This document shows, piece by piece, positions 1,292-32,228 of a stretch of DNA of 64,000 nt (the stretch's first letter is position 1; each line of letters begins with the position of its first letter). This DNA comes from an uncultured Chloroflexia bacterium (GTDB lineage Bacteria > Chloroflexota > Dehalococcoidia > DSTF01 > WHTK01), in assembly GCA_963766645.1 (NCBI GenBank), contig CAVYAY010000003.1, positions 416,554 to 480,553 on the forward strand, written 5' to 3'. Position numbers and translations under genes: made by a program. The notes below the pieces were generated by a model. The model did not search any database. It was not told the DNA's origin and was given only the letters and a program-made list of their open reading frames with translations.

Positions 1292-3345
1292 ACGACCGCT
1301 CCAACCGTGATCACCAGGTGCCCGAACTCGTTGACCGTGGCGCGGTCTGTCGGACTCAGCACCGTCACCGACGCAGCTTCCTCGATCACCGCCGGCCCCT
1401 CAATCTGATTTCCTGCCAGCAATCGCTCCCGGTCGTACACCGCGCACGCCACCGTCCCGGCCGCCTCAAAGCTGACGTCCCTTGTACCACGTCTCGCGCC
1501 TGTCTCGGGCTCTACGCCACCCTGCGCCAACTCGGGCAGCACCGGCTTCTCCAGGCGTCCCACGACCGAGACCCGCAGGCTGACTATCTCCGCCGGCTCA
1601 TCCGCGGCGCTGTGGCTGAAACGCTGCTCATGCGCCGCGTCGAAAATCTGCTTGATTGCCGCTCGCGAGGCCTCGTCCAGCGGCCAGCCGGGCATTGCTA
1701 CTCCAACCGCGTGCTCCTGGCCCACGTACCGCATATCCGCCGAACGCTCGAAAACAACGCCCACGGGCTGCACCCCCGATTCCGCCAGAGCGGCCTCGCC
1801 CTCCGCCTGCAGCTGTCTGAACAGGGCCTCGACATCCTCCATCGGCACGTCTGCCAGTCGCATGAAGGCCGTCTGCACGTAGTCCCGCCGCAGGTCTGCC
1901 TGCAGCATGCCGAACGCCGAGAAGTGGCCCGGCGCCTCCGGCACGATCACCGTCCCGATCGATAGCTCCCTGGCCACGTTCGCCGCGTGGAGCGGCCCCG
2001 CGCCGCCGTAAGCCACCAGCGTGAAGTCTCGCGGGTCCAGGCCACGTTCCAGCGTGACGTGGCGCACGGCGTTCGCCATCGACGCCGTCGCGATCTCGAG
2101 AATGCCGGCCGCCGCCCGCTCGAGGCCCAGCCCCAACGGCTGCGCCACGCGCACTTTCAAGGCTTCCGTAGCCGCCAGCCGGTCCAGCGTCATCTCGCCG
2201 CCCAGGAAGTCAGCCGGCGACATCCGCCCCAGGACCACGTTCGCGTCCGTGATCGTCGGTTCCCAACCGCCGCGTCCGTAACACACGGGACCCGGCTCGG
2301 CACCGGCGCTCTGCGGCCCAACGTGCAGCGCACCGCCTTCATCGACCCAGGCAATGCTGCCGCCACCTGTACCGACCTCAACGATGTCCAGGACCGGGAT
2401 CCGAATCGCCAGCCCTTCGTTGTAGCCGCCCAGGAAGTAATCCGATGAGAACGTCGGCTGGCCCCGCTGCACCACGCACGCCTTCGCCGTCGTCCCGCCC
2501 ATGTCGAACGCGATCACCGATTCCAACCCCAGCGCCTCGCACAGGCTCATCGTCCCAACCACACCCCCTGCAGGCCCTGACTCCATCATCTGGATGCACA
2601 GCCGCCGCGCCGTCTCCAGGTCATAGAGCCCGCCGTTGGACTGCATGATCATCAGGTCACCGGCGAATGCGTCGTCCCGCAGGCGTGTCTCCAGCTGGCC
2701 CAGGTAGCTGCTGACAGTCGGCCCCACAAACGCGTTCGCCGCCGTTGTCGAAGTCCGCTCGTACTCGCGGTATTCCCGCGACAGCTCGTGCGACGCCACG
2801 ACGAACAAGGACGGGTCCGCTTCGAGCAGAATTTCCCGCATCCGCGTCTCGTGCTCCGGGGCGCGGTAAGCGTGCAGGAAGACAATGCCGACCGCCTCGA
2901 CGCCTTCGTCCTTGAGGATGCGGGCGACTTCCCGCGCAGCAGCCTCGTCCAGCGGTGTCTGCACCGAGCCATCGGCCAGCATCCGCTCCCGCACCTCGAA
3001 GATCAGCTCTCGTGGCACCAGCGGTTTGTGCTTCTTGAAGTGCAGGTTGAAGGATTCCGGCCGGTTGATCCGCCCGATCTCGTAGACGTCGCGGAAGCCC
3101 TTCGTCGTCACGATCGCGGTCCGCGCGCCTTTGCGCTCGATGATCGCGTTCACCACCACGGTCGAGCCGTGGATCAGGGACGTTACCTCATCCAGGCGTG
3201 CGTTGGACTTGCCCAGGGCGTCCTGCACCCCGCGCGCCAGCTCCCCCGGTGTGCTCAGCGCCTTCGACAGCGAGACCTCGCTCGTCGCCTCGTCGAAGAC
3301 GACGACGTCAGTGAAGGTCCCGCCGATATCCACGCCGACACGCAT
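1288..3345 (-). CDS. Hydantoinase A / N-methylhydantoinase A / oxoprolinase family protein (HyuA-like)
   Basis: 685-aa ORF. N-terminus MRVGVDIGGTFTDVV is the ASKHA-type ATPase motif of hydantoinase_A. Translationally coupled to the HyuB-like gene. Confidence 0.9.
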   Translation of the reverse strand: MRVGVDIGGTFTDVVVFDEATSEVSLSKALSTPGELARGVQDALGKSNARLDEVTSLIHGSTVVVNAIIERKGARTAIVTTKGFRDVYEIGRINRPESFNLHFKKHKPLVPRELIFEVRERMLADGSVQTPLDEAAAREVARILKDEGVEAVGIVFLHAYRAPEHETRMREILLEADPSLFVVASHELSREYREYERTSTTAANAFVGPTVSSYLGQLETRLRDDAFAGDLMIMQSNGGLYDLETARRLCIQMMESGPAGGVVGTMSLCEALGLESVIAFDMGGTTAKACVVQRGQPTFSSDYFLGGYNEGLAIRIPVLDIVEVGTGGGSIAWVDEGGALHVGPQSAGAEPGPVCYGRGGWEPTITDANVVLGRMSPADFLGGEMTLDRLAATEALKVRVAQPLGLGLERAAAGILEIATASMANAVRHVTLERGLDPRDFTLVAYGGAGPLHAANVARELSIGTVIVPEAPGHFSAFGMLQADLRRDYVQTAFMRLADVPMEDVEALFRQLQAEGEAALAESGVQPVGVVFERSADMRYVGQEHAVGVAMPGWPLDEASRAAIKQIFDAAHEQRFSHSAADEPAEIVSLRVSVVGRLEKPVLPELAQGGVEPETGARRGTRDVSFEAAGTVACAVYDRERLLAGNQIEGPAVIEEAASVTVLSPTDRATVNEFGHLVITVGAVV

Positions 3346-3361
3346 CGATTCCCGCTCCCGA

Positions 3362-3682
3362 CTATGTGCAGCGGTGGTTGGCGAGATAGCCCTTCAGCCA
3401 CTCCTGCCACGCCGCGTCAATTGATCTCAGCGTCGTCTCGGCATCCCCGTCCCGCACCAGCGCCACTAGACGCAGGTCCGTTCCCTCGAGGTGCGGGTCG
3501 GCGCAGTACTGCGGCCTCACCACGATTTCGCCACCGCGTTCCAGTTCGGCCAGTTCCTCTTCGAAGGCGTCCGGCCGCGGCGCGGCCCAAAGTAGCGAGT
3601 CCGCCAGCTCGGCTACGAACCGTGCCGGCCGCGCGCCGCTTTCCAGCCGCTCCAGTATCAGCATGCGCAGCGAGTCACCCAT
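3362..3682 (-). CDS. Hypothetical small protein upstream of the hydantoinase pair
   Basis: 106-aa ORF on the same strand, 16 nt upstream of hyuA-like. Normal amino-acid composition. No family recognised. Confidence 0.5.
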   Translation of the reverse strand: MGDSLRMLILERLESGARPARFVAELADSLLWAAPRPDAFEEELAELERGGEIVVRPQYCADPHLEGTDLRLVALVRDGDAETTLRSIDAAWQEWLKGYLANHRCT

Positions 3683-3699
3683 CGCGTCGATTCTAGCGC

Positions 3700-4662
3700 T
3701 CAGTTCGAAGGCGGCGCGTAGTGCCCGAACGTGCTCTCGTAGTCGCGCTGCTGCTCTCTCGGCAGAAACTCGCTCTCCAGCCGGGTGATGTCATCGTGAC
3801 TGAACGACGCGAACGTGTCGAAGCGCACGCGGCCCCATTTACTCTCGGTTGCCGCCGCGCGACGCTCGTCTAGCGCTGCCTGCCCGCTCTGCTTCAGTTC
3901 GTTCAGCAGATCCCACGTCGCCTGCAGGCCCAGCGAAGACGTCATGCCCGGGAACAGGCACGCCGCCACGCCCATATCCTCCAGGTCCTGCAGAGTCGGT
4001 GCCGGCGGCGGCCCGCCGAAGTGCGGGATCACCGCTCCCGGGATCTTCTCCGCCGCAATACGCACCTCGTCCATGGTCTGGACGTTGTTCAGCCAGATCA
4101 GGTCGACGTGTGCCTCCTCGACATACGCGATGCAGCGCTCCACCGCCTCCTGGAACGACCCGTTCTCCGCGCCGATCAGGTCGCAGCGCGCGCAGATCAC
4201 GAAGTCCGGGTCAAGCTCCTGCTTCGCTGCCATCGCCGCCTTGAATTTCCCGAGCGCTTCGGCCTGCGAGATGCATTTGCGCCCTGCACCCGTCCCGGAC
4301 CGCTTCGGGAACTCCTGGTCCTCGATATGCAGTCCCGCCGCGCCGGCTCGGATGTAGCCCCGCACCGCGTGGTACACGTTCAGCGCGTTGCCGTACCCCG
4401 TATCAGCGTCGACGAAGATCGGGATACGGCACGCCGCCGTCACGCGCTGCGTCACCTGCGTCATCTCCTCGCGGCCCATGAAGCCCACATCTGGCAGGCC
4501 GTAAACGTAAGCCGCCGTCTGCGAGCCGGCCAGGAAGAACGACTCCAGCCCAGCCTCCTGGACCATCCGCGCGGCGATCGGGCTGAACCCGCCCGGCATC
4601 AGCAGCAGCTTCTCCTCCTTCAGCAATCGCTGGAATCGAGTTGTTACCTTCTCGTTAGCCAT
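3700..4662 (-). CDS. Isocitrate lyase / PEP mutase superfamily protein (methylisocitrate lyase / carboxyvinyl-carboxyphosphonate phosphorylmutase-like)
   Basis: Motifs FVDADTGYGN and HIEDQEFPKR. Start chosen at ATG 4662 (MANEKVTTRF...), preceded by GGAGG. The upstream 99 codons of the track ORF are Arg/His/Gly-rich junk. Confidence 0.85.
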   Translation of the reverse strand: MANEKVTTRFQRLLKEEKLLLMPGGFSPIAARMVQEAGLESFFLAGSQTAAYVYGLPDVGFMGREEMTQVTQRVTAACRIPIFVDADTGYGNALNVYHAVRGYIRAGAAGLHIEDQEFPKRSGTGAGRKCISQAEALGKFKAAMAAKQELDPDFVICARCDLIGAENGSFQEAVERCIAYVEEAHVDLIWLNNVQTMDEVRIAAEKIPGAVIPHFGGPPPAPTLQDLEDMGVAACLFPGMTSSLGLQATWDLLNELKQSGQAALDERRAAATESKWGRVRFDTFASFSHDDITRLESEFLPREQQRDYESTFGHYAPPSN

Positions 4663-28078: not shown

Positions 28079-29242
28079 CTACCGCGCCTCGCTAATCGAA
28101 TGCAGCGTCCGCGCCTTCGCTGCCTGCGCCGACACCGCCTCCTGGATCACCCGGTCGATCACCTCCACCGACGTGACCCCCTCCAGCTCCCAGAAGTACA
28201 GCGCCAGCGACCCCGGTATTGCGTTGACCTCGTTGATGTAAACCTTCCAACCGTTCGGGTCGACCAGGAAATCAACCCGCGCCACGCCGTTGAAGTTCAG
28301 CTCCGTGTACGCCAGCCGCGCCATCTCCTGCACCCGCGCTGCTACGTCGTCCGGGATGTCGGCCGGGATCACCCGCCGCGCCGCCGCCATCCCATCCTGT
28401 TTGCCACCCCGCAGATATTTCGTCGCGTAGTCCAGCACCTCGTCGTCTTTAATCGGGCGCTCGCACCGCGACACGTAGACGCCGCGCGTGTCCCGCAGCA
28501 CCGACACGTTGATGTCCATCCCGCCGTCGACCCCGCGCTCGATGATGCAGCGCCGGTCGTACGCCAGCACCGTGTCCACCGCAAACGCCAGCTCGTTCGC
28601 CGCGCCGACTCGAGACACACCAATGCTTGATCCTAATGTGGCCGGCTTCGCGTACACCGGCCAGCCCAGCATCGCCGCCTTCTCAACGATCGGTCCCTGC
28701 TCCAGCCCCCACGACGCCCGGTCGATCCAGAACCCGTCGACCACCGGCAGCCCCAGGCCTCTGAACGCCGCCTTCGCCGCGATCTTGTCCATCGAGACCG
28801 CCGCCGACGTCATATTCGGCCCCACGTAGGCCACGTCTGCCAGCTCGAAAACACCCTGCAACGAACCGTCTTCGCCATGCGTCCCGTGCATCACCGCGAA
28901 CGCCACGTCCACCTCGAGCGGTGCGACGCGCTCGCCGATTCCCGGCGTACTGCGCAACGTCGAAAGCAGACGGCCCTTCTCCGCCGAGAGCAGTACCCGG
29001 CGTCCCTTGTCGCGGGCAAACGCGTCGAACGAGGCCGGGTTCAGCGGCAGCCCGGCATGCACCGACACGTCGAACTCAGGCACCAGGAAGTAGTCGCCCT
29101 TCTCCGAGCAGTACACCGGCAGCAGGTCGTACTTGCCACGGTCCATCACGTTCATGACCTGCGCCGCGGTCACGATTGACACGCCGTGCTCCACGGACCG
29201 CCCGCCAAAGAACACCGCGACCTTGAGCCTCCCCTGATTCAC
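28079..29242 (-). CDS. ddl: D-alanine--D-alanine ligase family protein
   Basis: 387-aa ORF. N-terminus KVAVFFGGRSVEHGVSIVTA and ATP-grasp body (...HGTHGEDGSLQG..., ...VNEVNAIPG...). Confidence 0.9.
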   Translation of the reverse strand: MNQGRLKVAVFFGGRSVEHGVSIVTAAQVMNVMDRGKYDLLPVYCSEKGDYFLVPEFDVSVHAGLPLNPASFDAFARDKGRRVLLSAEKGRLLSTLRSTPGIGERVAPLEVDVAFAVMHGTHGEDGSLQGVFELADVAYVGPNMTSAAVSMDKIAAKAAFRGLGLPVVDGFWIDRASWGLEQGPIVEKAAMLGWPVYAKPATLGSSIGVSRVGAANELAFAVDTVLAYDRRCIIERGVDGGMDINVSVLRDTRGVYVSRCERPIKDDEVLDYATKYLRGGKQDGMAAARRVIPADIPDDVAARVQEMARLAYTELNFNGVARVDFLVDPNGWKVYINEVNAIPGSLALYFWELEGVTSVEVIDRVIQEAVSAQAAKARTLHSISEAR

Positions 29243-29427
29243 ACCGCAATCCTACGTTCGCCCCGCCCTACTGTCACCGCCGCCTCGGCGCGGTCATTGC
29301 GGGGAGGCGCCAGCCGAGGGGCAACCTCAGGTCCCCACCAACCCCCAAACCGCAGTCCACCCAACGCCTTTCCCAAGAAGACTTGCCGAGGTTCTCCAGC
29401 CTCGGCGTCATCAGACCTCCAACGTCC

Positions 29428-29463
29428 CAACCACGAAGCTGCAGGTTTCAACCTGCAGAGTCC
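29428..29463 (+). repeat. R2 hairpin repeat copy (perfect 8-bp stem CTGCAGGT-TTCA-ACCTGCAG)
   Basis: caaccacgaagctgcaggtttcaacctgcagagtcc. Confidence 0.7.
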
Positions 29464-29509
29464 TTCATCCGCGCAAACGGCTCGTCAGTCGCGAGGCTCA
29501 GGCAGAGTC

Positions 29510-29542
29510 AGTGGGGGCGCAGGACGCGCGGCTTTCGGCGCC
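29510..29542 (+). repeat. R1 element, internally deleted mini-copy
   Basis: gtgggggcgcag|gacgcgcggctttcggcgcc joins the R1 5' end to its 3' tail (compare 38803-38814 and 38900-38920). Confidence 0.55.
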
Positions 29543-29563
29543 CGTCATCACCGAGACCCACCG

Positions 29564-31276
29564 TCAAATCACCAATGTCTCGTCGAACTGGTCCGGCAGG
29601 TCATTCGCATACAACACCACGTCCCCCGCCGCCCCCATCCTCCCAAGCGCCTCGCGCGCCTCGTCCAGACTCCGCGTCACGTGCAACGATCCCTCCGGAA
29701 ACGACGCCTCCAGCATCGCCTGCCTGATGTCCGACGTCTGCTTCGGCCCCACCAGGAACGCCACGTCCACGTTCGCCGCCGCAGCTCTACCAATTCGAGT
29801 GTGATACTCCGCCTTCGCCCGGCCCATCTCGATCAGGCCCGGTGTCACCAGCACTCGACGCCGCGGCGCGTACCGCCCCAGCACCTCTATAGCGCCGATA
29901 ATCCCCTCCGGATTCGCGTTGTACGCGTCGTCCAGCACCGTAATCCCGTTCGCTTCCATCGGCTGCAATCGATGCTCCGGCGGGCGAAACTGCCGTATCG
30001 CGGCCGCCATGTAGCCCAGCTCCAGCCCGCAGCTCAGTCCCACTCCGATCGCCGCCAGCACGTTCGTAGCGTTATGTCGAGCCAGCAGCTGCGTGACGAC
30101 GTGCGCCGTTTCGCCCCCGAAGCTCACGTACAATTCGATCCCGTTATCCGTCTCGACAATGTTGCTGCCTCGCAGTTCCGCCTCTACGGACTCCACCCCA
30201 AAAGAGATCAATCCGATGCCGCCGTAGGCCGACGCCCGCTCCTCGATCGCCGCCACGTCGAAGTTCAGCACCGCCGTGCCGCCCGGCTTCAGCCCCTCGA
30301 CGATCTCCCACTTCGCCGCCGCTGTCGCCTCGAGCGACCCGAACCGCTCCAGGTGCTGCGCGTTTACCGTCGTGATCGCGCTCACGTCCGTGCCGCCCAC
30401 CAGCCGGCACAGCTTCTCGATCTCGCCCCGCCTGTACGCCCCCATCTCGACCACGAAGTACTCTTGCCCCTGCAACGAGTCGTTCACCGTCCGCGCGATC
30501 CCCAGGGGCGTATTAAAGCTCGCCGGTGTCTTCAACACTCGATACCGAGCCGACAGCAGGTGCGCCACCAGCTCCTTCGTCGTCGTCTTCCCTGCGCTCC
30601 CCGTGATCGCGATGATTCGCGGCCGCTGCTCCTGCAGCTTCGCCGCCGCCATCGACTGGAACCGCCGCCGCGACCGCTCCTCGAACGGCCACAGCGCCAG
30701 GTTCGCCAATAGGACCAGATGCCCGGGCAGCACAGCCACCAGCGTCGCGCCGAAGATGCCCAGTACCAGCCCATCGCGCGTTCCCTGTAGCAGCCCGAAT
30801 CCGAGACCCAACGCCACGATTCCCACGCCCAGAACGATTGCGATCACGAATATTCGTCGAGCTCGCGCCGTCATCACCAGTGGCTTCTTTGCCTTCGAGC
30901 CCGACCGATACTGGAGCCCCAGCATCGAAAGCCCTGTCGCCAACCAGACCGCCGATCCGACGACCGCCACCGATTCCGAGGCGAACCCCGCTAGCCAGAT
31001 CCCAAGAACCAGCCCGCCAACAGCCGGCACCAGGAACGGAAGCCGTAGATAACGGTCCGGGTGGTCCTGAAGCCACCACAGATACTGCCGCGTCAAATAC
31101 TCCTCGAGCTGCAGGATGTGCAGAAACCGCCGAGCCCGCAGCACCGTCAGCACCCCCCAAGGTGCCAACCCCACCCCAAACACCAGCCACGCTTCAGTCA
31201 CGCGTGAGCTCCGGCTGTGCGCGAGTAACCCAACATCGCTGTGTACGACAGCAAGGGTAGCGGGAGCGCAGCCCAC
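29564..31276 (-). CDS. MurF-like Mur ligase (middle and C-terminal domains) fused to an N-terminal polytopic membrane domain
   Basis: The C-terminal ~380 aa read ...IIAITGSAGKTTTKE..., ...VLDDAYNANPEG... and ...VTPGLIEMG..., which is MurF-like. The N-terminal ~190 aa carry about 5 hydrophobic helices in place of the MurF N-domain. Alternative start at GTG 31201. Confidence 0.8.
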   Translation of the reverse strand: MGCAPATLAVVHSDVGLLAHSRSSRVTEAWLVFGVGLAPWGVLTVLRARRFLHILQLEEYLTRQYLWWLQDHPDRYLRLPFLVPAVGGLVLGIWLAGFASESVAVVGSAVWLATGLSMLGLQYRSGSKAKKPLVMTARARRIFVIAIVLGVGIVALGLGFGLLQGTRDGLVLGIFGATLVAVLPGHLVLLANLALWPFEERSRRRFQSMAAAKLQEQRPRIIAITGSAGKTTTKELVAHLLSARYRVLKTPASFNTPLGIARTVNDSLQGQEYFVVEMGAYRRGEIEKLCRLVGGTDVSAITTVNAQHLERFGSLEATAAAKWEIVEGLKPGGTAVLNFDVAAIEERASAYGGIGLISFGVESVEAELRGSNIVETDNGIELYVSFGGETAHVVTQLLARHNATNVLAAIGVGLSCGLELGYMAAAIRQFRPPEHRLQPMEANGITVLDDAYNANPEGIIGAIEVLGRYAPRRRVLVTPGLIEMGRAKAEYHTRIGRAAAANVDVAFLVGPKQTSDIRQAMLEASFPEGSLHVTRSLDEAREALGRMGAAGDVVLYANDLPDQFDETLVI

Positions 31277-31378
31277 GCACGGGCAGCTCGAGGGGTGTCC
31301 CCTCGGAACGGCTTCGTTCTAAAGAGGGAGAAGCAGATGAGCCGAGAGGCAAGGACCCGCAGCCCTCGACACTCCAAG
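31255..31378 (+). repeat. R1 interspersed element, divergent full copy E
   Basis: ggtagcgggagcgcagcccacgcacgggcagctcgaggggtgtcccctcgg...ttctaaagagggag... Confidence 0.7.
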
Positions 31379-31390
31379 GAAGTCCACCCT

Positions 31391-32228
31391 TCACGCCAGA
31401 AACGACGCCACCGCCTCCGCGAACGCCTCCGGCTGATCCAGGAAAGGGAAGTGCCCCGCACCCTCCAGCGTCACCAGCCGAACGTCCTCCAGCTCCGCCA
31501 TCGCCTCCTCCGCCACGCCGCAACGGCACCTCCGTGTCCAACGACCCCCAGATCAGCAGCACCGGCGCCTGCACCGACGCCAGCAACGGCCGCATATCCT
31601 CATTCACGACGCGCACCAGCGTCGGCCGCAAGACTCCCGCCGACTTGTAGTCCGCCGAACCGAACCGCTCTCGTCCCCACGAAAGCATGCGCTCCCGTAA
31701 CGGCGGCAGAAGCGTCGCCGCACGGCGCAGCATCGCGAACCGCCGGCTGCGACGCCGCACGCCCGGCTCCAGCGGCAGCTGGACGATCGGAGACGCCACG
31801 ATGACCAGTCTCTTCACCAGCTCCGGATACGCCGTCGCCAGCGCGAGCGCCACCTTGCCACCAAACGAATGCCCCAACACATTCACCGACTCGAACCCTG
31901 CAGATCGCGGCAGCCCGGCGATAGCCCGCGCGTACTCCGCCGAACCCCACGCCTCCGGCGGCGGCTCACTAAATCCGAACCCCGGCAGGTCCGGCACCAG
32001 GGTCCGGTACTTCTCTTCCAGCAGACTCGCCGCGCCCATGAAGCTCAGCGAGCTCTGACCCCAGCCGTGCAGCATCAGCAACGGCTCGCCATCGGCCTTG
32101 CCGCGCAAGCGAAACTGCACACGCAGGCCCTCGACGTCTGTGAAATGCTGCGGGCTAACGACCATGGCGCTTCGATTGTCCTCTACGCCGCCCCGCCATT
32201 CAACGCGCTCTTTCTGATCCGAGCCCAC
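31391..32228 (-). CDS. Alpha/beta hydrolase, one frameshift near 31525
   Basis: ...LLMLHGWGQS..., GHSFGG nucleophile elbow. The tail ...VAEEAMAELEDVRLVTLEGAGHFPFLDQPEAFAEAVASFLA-stop (31391-31393) lies in the adjacent frame. Confidence 0.75.

Follow-up and report, generated by a model that had tools for sequence, protein, structure and literature searches.

The enzyme MurF is essential, nearly universal and a target for antibiotics; it is described as a soluble protein of three domains, the first of which (domain 1) holds the uridine diphosphate (UDP) end of the substrate. What, then, is the role of a MurF-type ligase in which five membrane helices stand in the place of domain 1? This question is raised by a 64,000-nucleotide stretch of DNA from an uncultured Chloroflexia bacterium of the lineage Dehalococcoidia (assembly GCA_963766645.1, contig CAVYAY010000003.1, positions 416,554 to 480,553), which was analysed as a whole and is called the window below; coordinates refer to the window unless a contig or locus is named with them. 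Three consecutive genes lie on its minus strand: a gene for an alpha/beta serine hydrolase, the MurF-like gene, whose product we call TM-MurF for its transmembrane (TM) domain, and ddl, which encodes a D-Ala-D-Ala ligase (Ddl). The original prediction for this locus suggested that the ligase adds a Ddl-made dipeptide to an acceptor other than soluble UDP-N-acetylmuramic acid (MurNAc)-tripeptide. The genomic comparisons reported here lead to a different reading, to which we give a probability of roughly 0.6, namely that TM-MurF is the housekeeping MurF of its host in an alternative, membrane-embedded form. We favour this reading because TM-MurF and Ddl are the only enzymes of their kind in the genome, because the division and cell wall (dcw) cluster lacks both genes, and because TM-MurF and canonical MurF exclude each other across genomes.

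TM-MurF is the sole MurF of its genome

TM-MurF is the product of the only MurF-like gene in the genome, where the next-best match to the murF model TIGR01143 is MurD with 69 bits, and the neighbouring ddl is likewise the only gene of its kind; the canonical three-domain MurF and second Ddl that the original prediction proposed to look for were both missing from the genome. The expectation that the pair lies outside a dcw cluster was borne out, as the cluster (C3:515367-532138) is located on the same contig at a distance of about 70 kb, and the linkage of TM-MurF to ddl is real, ddl being the next gene downstream (28079-29242). The dcw cluster of this genome contains rsmH, ftsI, mraY, murD, ftsW, murG, murC, murB and ftsQAZ. 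Two congeners that have no TM-MurF (G012 and G005) carry the order rsmH-ftsI-murF-mraY-murD-ftsW-murG-murC-murB-ddl-ftsQAZ, and both the present genome and the complete genome G014 possess a collinear cluster minus exactly murF and ddl, with the module of hydrolase, TM-MurF and Ddl elsewhere. Furthermore, mraY, murG and the remaining dcw genes are orthologous between the congeners, at 58-89% identity.

TM-MurF and canonical MurF exclude each other

The membrane domain was found in 104 of 151 Rhodothermales, 43 of 201 Oscillospirales and 8 of 301 Dehalococcoidia, where it is confined to 4 of 177 genera. Carriers of TM-MurF include the cultured Rhodothermus marinus (P0208), R. profundi and one Salinibacter metagenome-assembled genome (MAG), and in gut Oscillospirales a single 90%-identity cluster of TM-MurF comprises 4463 member sequences. 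Canonical MurF scoring above the TIGR01143 cut-off was present in none of 36 carriers (19 Rhodothermales, 12 Oscillospirales and 5 Dehalococcoidia) and in 11 of 12 non-carriers of the same orders, in the latter with 314-412 bits and full model coverage. The 19 Rhodothermales carriers were chosen for having the gene on contig 1 or on another contig of at least several hundred kb; incompleteness of MAGs could hide genes in the sampled genomes. TM-MurF was the only MurF-type ligase in every carrier examined, with the exception of two small proteobacterial MAGs (G046 and G047; loci L050-L052), which hold a canonical MurF in the dcw cluster (346 and 398 bits) in addition to a hydrolase/TM-MurF module. 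The sole detectable Ddl of these two MAGs is of the module type. They may represent a transitional state or be a sign of non-redundancy.

In Dehalococcoidia the distribution of TM-MurF is patchy, which points to acquisition of the module followed by loss of the resident genes. TM-MurF, the hydrolase and a special type of Ddl behave as one evolutionary module that replaced canonical murF plus ddl several times.

Rhodothermales matches to Mur ligase models that lie beside mraY (TIGR01143, 133-147 bits) were considered as canonical MurF and rejected, since they are MurE (TIGR01085, 473-502 bits). One Rhodothermales carrier (G401) has an extra 292-aa frame (C4:786880-787755) that matches positions 118-418 of the murF model with 212 bits; it lies on a contig other than that of TM-MurF, shared with the hydrolase orthologue, and is possibly a remnant or a second copy. 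In one Rhodothermales MAG (L055, G042:C90, 1740-3296) a ligase about 7 kb upstream of the hydrolase and TM-MurF genes has its best match in the Mpl model TIGR01081, with 350 bits against a cut-off of 388.7. Where Rhodothermales have the canonical MurF (G345, G347, G353 and G360; L061-L063 and L069), ddl and murF adjoin outside dcw, so that in this order the MurF and Ddl pair stands apart from dcw whichever type it is.

The ligase core is MurF-like and lacks domain 1

TM-MurF (29564-31201, minus strand, 545 aa) combines a Mur ligase central ATPase domain (30041-30607, minus strand; PF08245, E 4e-38), with the P-loop GSAGKTT at 30581-30601, and a Mur ligase C-terminal domain with DDAYNANP (29609-29974, minus strand; PF02875, E 2e-16), which was also placed by alignment A1 and alignment to Escherichia coli MurF; in the numbering of the 570-aa open reading frame (ORF) the two Pfam matches span residues 224-412 and 435-556. 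The motifs quoted in the original prediction (ITGSAGKTTTKE, DDAYNANP, GLIEMG and HILQLEEY) are all present in the translation. The best NCBIfam match is murF TIGR01143, with 244-245 bits over model positions 57-402 of 418, and the alignment with E. coli MurF (1GG4) begins at residue 83 of the latter and runs through residue 396. Because the UDP-binding domain is missing, the score falls below the curated cut-off of 288.6 bits, and the 36 other carriers reached 222-261 bits. The replacement of the N-domain that had been proposed is thus real, with approximately 190 N-terminal residues forming five predicted TM helices, and the alignments show that the UDP-binding domain 1 of MurF is truly absent from TM-MurF.

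In the C-terminal domain the MurF-type DDAYNANP is kept, and the family-specific motifs EHRLQ and TPGxxExG stand in place of GRL and GDMxELG. The top Foldseek matches of TM-MurF are the MurF structures 4QF5, 3ZL8 and 4CVM, and the MurT-type family, with its DUF1727-type C-terminal domain, was not listed in the Pfam or NCBIfam scans of the ligase. A maximum-likelihood tree of ligase domains, with MurE as outgroup, separated a TM clade (support 94/91) from a canonical clade (94/94), which argues that the TM form is an old sister lineage of canonical MurF and not a local derivative. TM-MurF fills the MurF role as a sister clade, yet it departs from the formal definition of MurF on two counts, domain 1 and the curated score.

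A conserved membrane domain takes the place of domain 1

The N-terminal membrane domain (residues 1-192; 30626-31201, minus strand) is predicted to contain five TM helices in an N-out/C-in arrangement; the five hydrophobic helices within the first ~190 residues were recognized by eye from the hydropathy of the translation. Three polar motifs are invariant across alignment A1, which comprises 19 members from Dehalococcoidia, Rhodothermales, Clostridia/Oscillospirales and Proteobacteria, and across alignment A2: LHxxQLxxY..W after TM1 (residues 27-43; 31073-31123, minus strand), KKPLxxTxRxxR after TM3 (residues 105-116; 30854-30889, minus strand) and PxE after TM5 (residues 172-174). The HILQLEEY segment, which had been described as conserved-looking, is indeed conserved, its H, Q and Y being invariant across four phyla. 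By the positive-inside rule all three motifs are predicted to lie in cytoplasmic loops.

The AlphaFold2 model of the full-length protein reached a predicted local distance difference test score (pLDDT) of 88.4 and a predicted template modelling score (pTM) of 0.78, and that of the membrane domain alone a pLDDT of 91 and a pTM of 0.84. In the model, a single continuous helix (residues 159-192) leads from TM5 to the strand with which the P-loop domain begins. The membrane sequence had been placed about 30 residues from the P-loop; it is indeed close, but the gap comes to about 25 residues, and these belong to the continuous helix out of TM5.

Pfam holds no family for the membrane domain, giving only DUF7937 below threshold, and NCBIfam holds no model for it. 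The DUF7937 match (E 0.002 to 1e-5, below the gathering score) was set aside, as it resembles generic hydrophobic similarity. A Foldseek search of the PDB with the model of this domain returned no meaningful fold match (best E 0.5, TM-scores <0.4, mostly rhodopsins and transporters). When clusters at 50% identity were searched with a profile of the membrane domain, their representatives gave 1738 matches at E<=1e-3, of which 840 reached E<=1e-10; among the representatives listed, most are TM-plus-ligase proteins of 515-570 aa, and every shorter protein that was scanned proved to be a truncated copy. The membrane region is thus a conserved domain and more than an anchor.

A serine hydrolase accompanies TM-MurF

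The hydrolase gene (31391-32228, minus strand; Pfam Abhydrolase_1/6), given here as the maximal ORF with a start perhaps nearer 32186, lies directly upstream of TM-MurF in all four phyla, and its stop and the TM-MurF start overlap by 4 bp in L032, L033, L037, L038, L043 and L058. A hydrolase profile scored 207-339 bits in 37 of 37 carriers, and <=124 bits or no match at all in 14 of 14 non-carriers. From these patterns the hydrolase is predicted to be an obligate, often translationally coupled partner of TM-MurF. In 10 orthologues that represent four phyla (alignment A3), the nucleophile elbow GHSxGG, the triad residues D217 and H245 and the oxyanion motif HGWG show no variation, and the family has a polar lid motif of its own, GSxDY(K/R)...R. 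The PDB entries closest to the hydrolase in sequence are alpha/beta-fold hydrolases and esterases of generic type (4NS4, 6I8W and 7C4D), and inspection by eye revealed no signal peptide.

A natural fusion of TM-MurF to the hydrolase occurs in P0151 (869 aa, metagenomic), the only one of the fusion candidates shown to have both domains in frame. Frames of 856-893 aa in G458 and G460 were rejected as fusions: the translated G460 frame has an Arg/Pro-rich upstream part that is out of frame, and is thus a stop-free frame in G+C-rich DNA. At two loci another ORF is inserted between the hydrolase and TM-MurF, namely a 167-aa PIN-like ORF in L056 (5245-5748; the R. marinus-like G338) and a 461-aa membrane-transporter-like ORF on the opposite strand in L057 (4253-5638).

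In the window itself, the hydrolase gene carries a 1-nt frameshift near 31517-31520, where cgg-c-gtg stands against LRVAEE in the G014 orthologue. A tblastn search with this intact orthologue returned two frames, 32180-31521 and 31516-31397; the last 40 hydrolase residues, including the catalytic His, lie in the second frame, with the C-terminus VAEEAMAEL...ASFLA* and the TGA at 31393-31391. The frameshift is probably a long-read consensus error.

A Ddl subtype co-segregates with TM-MurF

The 387-aa product of ddl matches Dala_Dala_lig_N (PF01820) and Dala_Dala_lig_C (PF07478), and scores 280 bits with NF002528, above the cut-off of 262. Its omega-loop is extended (KYLRGGKQ-DGMAAARRVIPA), and after IPG it has lost 4 residues. 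The Ddl proteins linked to TM-MurF in Dehalococcoidia, Clostridia and Proteobacteria share the deletion and have an omega-loop (KYxxGGK...GM...R.IPA) that exceeds that of canonical Ddl by 7-20 residues, whereas the dcw-encoded Ddl of the sister species has neither the long omega-loop nor the post-IPG deletion. Both features recur in the unlinked Ddl of Rhodothermales with TM-MurF. Compared to a TM-lineage Rhodothermales Ddl, TM-lineage Ddl proteins of other phyla scored 302-347 bits and those of Rhodothermales with canonical MurF 168-249 bits; an exception is the Dehalococcoidia family f28, whose Ddl proteins scored 209-227 bits. The Ddl subtype co-segregates with TM-MurF across phyla, even when the two genes are unlinked, and MurF and Ddl thus form two kinds of matched pair.

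The residues E15, S150 and Y216 of DdlB mark D-Ala-D-Ala ligases over D-Ala-D-Lac ligases. The VEH, GSS and KY motifs, which hold the Glu, Ser and Tyr positions, are kept in the Ddl alignments, with the longer omega-loop following KY, and the product of the enzyme is predicted to be D-Ala-D-Ala.

Proposed reaction and alternatives

In the scheme that we favour, the downstream Ddl would make D-Ala-D-Ala, and TM-MurF would convert the free carboxylate on residue three of the stem peptide to an acyl phosphate and ligate the dipeptide there, yielding the MurNAc-pentapeptide needed by penicillin-binding proteins. The three cytoplasmic motifs would occupy the place of domain 1 and bind the UDP/diphosphate end of the acceptor, and the reaction would proceed on the inner side of the membrane, close to MraY. 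The hydrolase would be a required partner, probably in complex with TM-MurF; its candidate roles are trimming or editing of the stem peptide, in the manner of a carboxypeptidase, and unmasking or supplying a substrate, in the way that GatD does for MurT. We consider UDP-MurNAc-tripeptide the probable acceptor, since the module and murF plus ddl swap between congeners in which the rest of the pathway is orthologous. The His, Gln, Tyr and Trp residues that never vary in the loops would also suit binding of a nucleotide.

Several points weigh against this scheme. Use of UDP-MurNAc-tripeptide is assumed, since the UDP-binding domain that recognizes this substrate is missing, and that the conserved loops sit at the acceptor site is something we infer from topology. 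The textbook MurF reaction has no role for a strictly required hydrolase, and the requirement hints at chemistry beyond simple replacement; the least understood aspect of the system is that the hydrolase is strictly coupled to the TM form and never accompanies canonical MurF. Furthermore, the hydrolase gene in the window carries a frameshift, and, judging by the two proteobacterial MAGs that hold both, the two forms of MurF may not be fully redundant.

The chief rival is a change in the order of the pathway, which we regard as a tentative possibility. Here MraY would move phospho-MurNAc-tripeptide to undecaprenyl phosphate, and TM-MurF would then add D-Ala-D-Ala to lipid I/II-tripeptide at the cytoplasmic face of the membrane, with the membrane domain binding the undecaprenyl-diphosphate end and the hydrolase being GatD-like or an editor of lipid-linked stem peptides. 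A polytopic membrane domain in place of the UDP-binding domain, the invariant Lys/Arg cluster of KKPLxxTxRxxR at the membrane interface and the rigid connection of the ligase core to TM5 all fit such a reaction, and an obligate hydrolase is easier to rationalize if the chemistry departs from that of textbook MurF. There is also a precedent in MurT, which has no structured domain 1, acts on lipid II and lipid I and needs a partner with a catalytic triad (PMC6085368). However, the exchange of the module for murF plus ddl between congeners whose mraY, murG and other genes are 58-89% identical is most simply explained by an unchanged substrate, and the invariant His, Gln, Tyr and Trp fit a nucleotide as well as a lipid. 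That in carriers the last cytoplasmic precursor step has moved into the membrane, with a complex of TM-MurF and hydrolase completing the pentapeptide on lipid I/II, is a proposition that we hold to be rather unlikely.

Much less probable is an accessory system, one reading of the original prediction, in which a Ddl-made dipeptide is added to a membrane acceptor outside peptidoglycan, such as a lipid or another glycopolymer, in parallel to a normal MurF. A locus outside dcw, the membrane domain, the lipase/esterase-like partner and the canonical MurF of the two proteobacterial MAGs would each fit such a system, but the genome has no other MurF or Ddl despite full mraY, murD, murG, murC, murB, ftsW and ftsI, the 36 carriers hold no canonical MurF, and murF and ddl are cleanly gone from dcw exactly in carriers. 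For this genome these observations contradict the proposal of a non-peptidoglycan acceptor served beside the normal pathway. The last alternative, that an assembly indel joined a separate membrane gene to a truncated murF, can be dismissed even though the assembly has frameshifts (in the hydrolase gene, murC and probably murE) and 67% completeness on 4 contigs, as the same single-ORF architecture recurs in 1738 representative clusters and in hundreds of genomes, complete ones such as G014 and Rhodothermus marinus included, and AlphaFold2 predicts with high confidence a continuous helix over the junction.

Relation to known systems

Canonical MurF (TIGR01143; 1GG4, 4CVM, 4QF5 and 3ZL8) is the sister clade of TM-MurF and its best match in sequence and fold; the two share the P-loop ATPase domain, the C-terminal DxYNANP and the same genomic role. 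TM-MurF differs in its 190-residue five-helix domain in place of domain 1, its EHRLQ and TPGxxExG motifs, its score below the cut-off, and its constant pairing with a hydrolase of the alpha/beta fold and with a special Ddl. MurT/GatD resembles it in that MurT is a Mur ligase homologue without a structured UDP-binding domain, has an obligate triad partner and works at the membrane, where it acts on lipid II and lipid I and on no UDP-linked precursor (PMC6085368). However, MurT is soluble, has a DUF1727-type C-terminal domain and amidates D-Glu with ammonia from the Cys-His glutaminase GatD, whereas TM-MurF is polytopic, is MurF-like in both catalytic domains and has a Ser-Asp-His alpha/beta hydrolase as its partner.

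Two papers describe Helicobacter pylori Csd complexes that contain MurF and a MurG scaffold in Bordetella pertussis (PMC9507126, PMC6420597), and a MurE-MurF fusion of B. pertussis (PDB 8F5D) was among the structure matches. In these species as well, MurF is proposed to work near the membrane steps, but there a canonical three-domain MurF is recruited or fused to MurE, whereas TM-MurF has a built-in membrane attachment. MurF'-Alr chimeras of Bacteroidota and Chloroflexota, in which the MurF' part modulates the racemase, are a further non-standard MurF-derived architecture in the D-Ala branch; in contrast to TM-MurF, the chimera retains three Mur domains, to which alanine racemase is fused, and lacks a membrane domain (PMC13726279). 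In the Dehalococcoidia family f28 (L058, G120:C37), an 877-aa gene (1544-4177, minus strand) lies divergent to hydrolase-TM-MurF-Ddl and matches the whole murF model with 186 bits, which makes it, by TIGR01143 coverage and length, a candidate MurF'-Alr. If this identity is true, the locus would be a compact cluster for the D-Ala branch.

Public databases label TM-MurF proteins MurF or "Mur ligase family protein", and the names of ten cluster representatives were mostly absent or just "MurF". Literature searches that covered MurF with a membrane anchor or transmembrane helices, MurF-like membrane proteins and murF of Dehalococcoidia turned up no account of the membrane domain, of the partner hydrolase or of the mutual exclusion with canonical MurF, and neither the Lipocone paper nor the MurF'-Alr paper (PMC13726279) covers TM-MurF. 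The form is apparently undescribed.

Gene starts, intergenic regions and assembly quality

Both ORFs of the original prediction lie on the minus strand where it had placed them, at 29564-31276 (570 aa) and 28079-29242 (387 aa). The length of 570 aa holds for translation from the first in-frame start, but the true protein most likely has 545 aa and begins with the GTG at 31201: a GGAG (31212-31209) stands 7 nt upstream of it, the public gene call P0001 is 545 aa long, and homologues likewise begin at this position in the alignment. The ORF is extendable upstream to 31276 because a copy of an interspersed repeat of ~125-150 nt, identified by blastn, occupies 31240-31390 between the hydrolase and TM-MurF genes. 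The repeat has 29 blastn matches across the genome, and copies of it occupy the dcw slots C3:519325-519808 and C3:527693-528347, the sites of ddl and murF in sister species; in G014 these two slots measure only about 280 and 55 bp. Downstream of TM-MurF, an intergenic spacer of 321 bp (29243-29563) precedes ddl, where the G014 counterpart has 168 bp.

The assembly consists of 4 contigs, yet its estimated completeness is 67%. murC is split into two overlapping ORFs of 246 and 314 aa (C3:520937-522173), and the matches to a probable murE (C3:241701-242614) are fragmentary. Split genes and the completeness of 67% are consistent with widespread consensus indels.

Implications for the MurF step

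The TM form represents a sister clade of MurF that has no domain 1, is an integral membrane protein and always has a dedicated serine hydrolase, and it is the one MurF present in Rhodothermus marinus, in Salinibacter relatives, in about a fifth of the sampled Oscillospirales and in scattered Chloroflexota. The MurF and Ddl step thereby emerges as a swappable module of two or three genes, and a conserved hydrolase is assigned a role in the cell wall. TM-MurF is not expected to bind inhibitors built for the cleft between domains 1 and 2 of canonical MurF. R. marinus offers a tractable system for acceptor recognition by a Mur ligase without domain 1. The TM form also makes completion of the pentapeptide on the lipid carrier a testable possibility; if the lipid-linked reading were true, the Mur pathway would be re-ordered in Rhodothermales, in many gut Oscillospirales and in some Chloroflexota.

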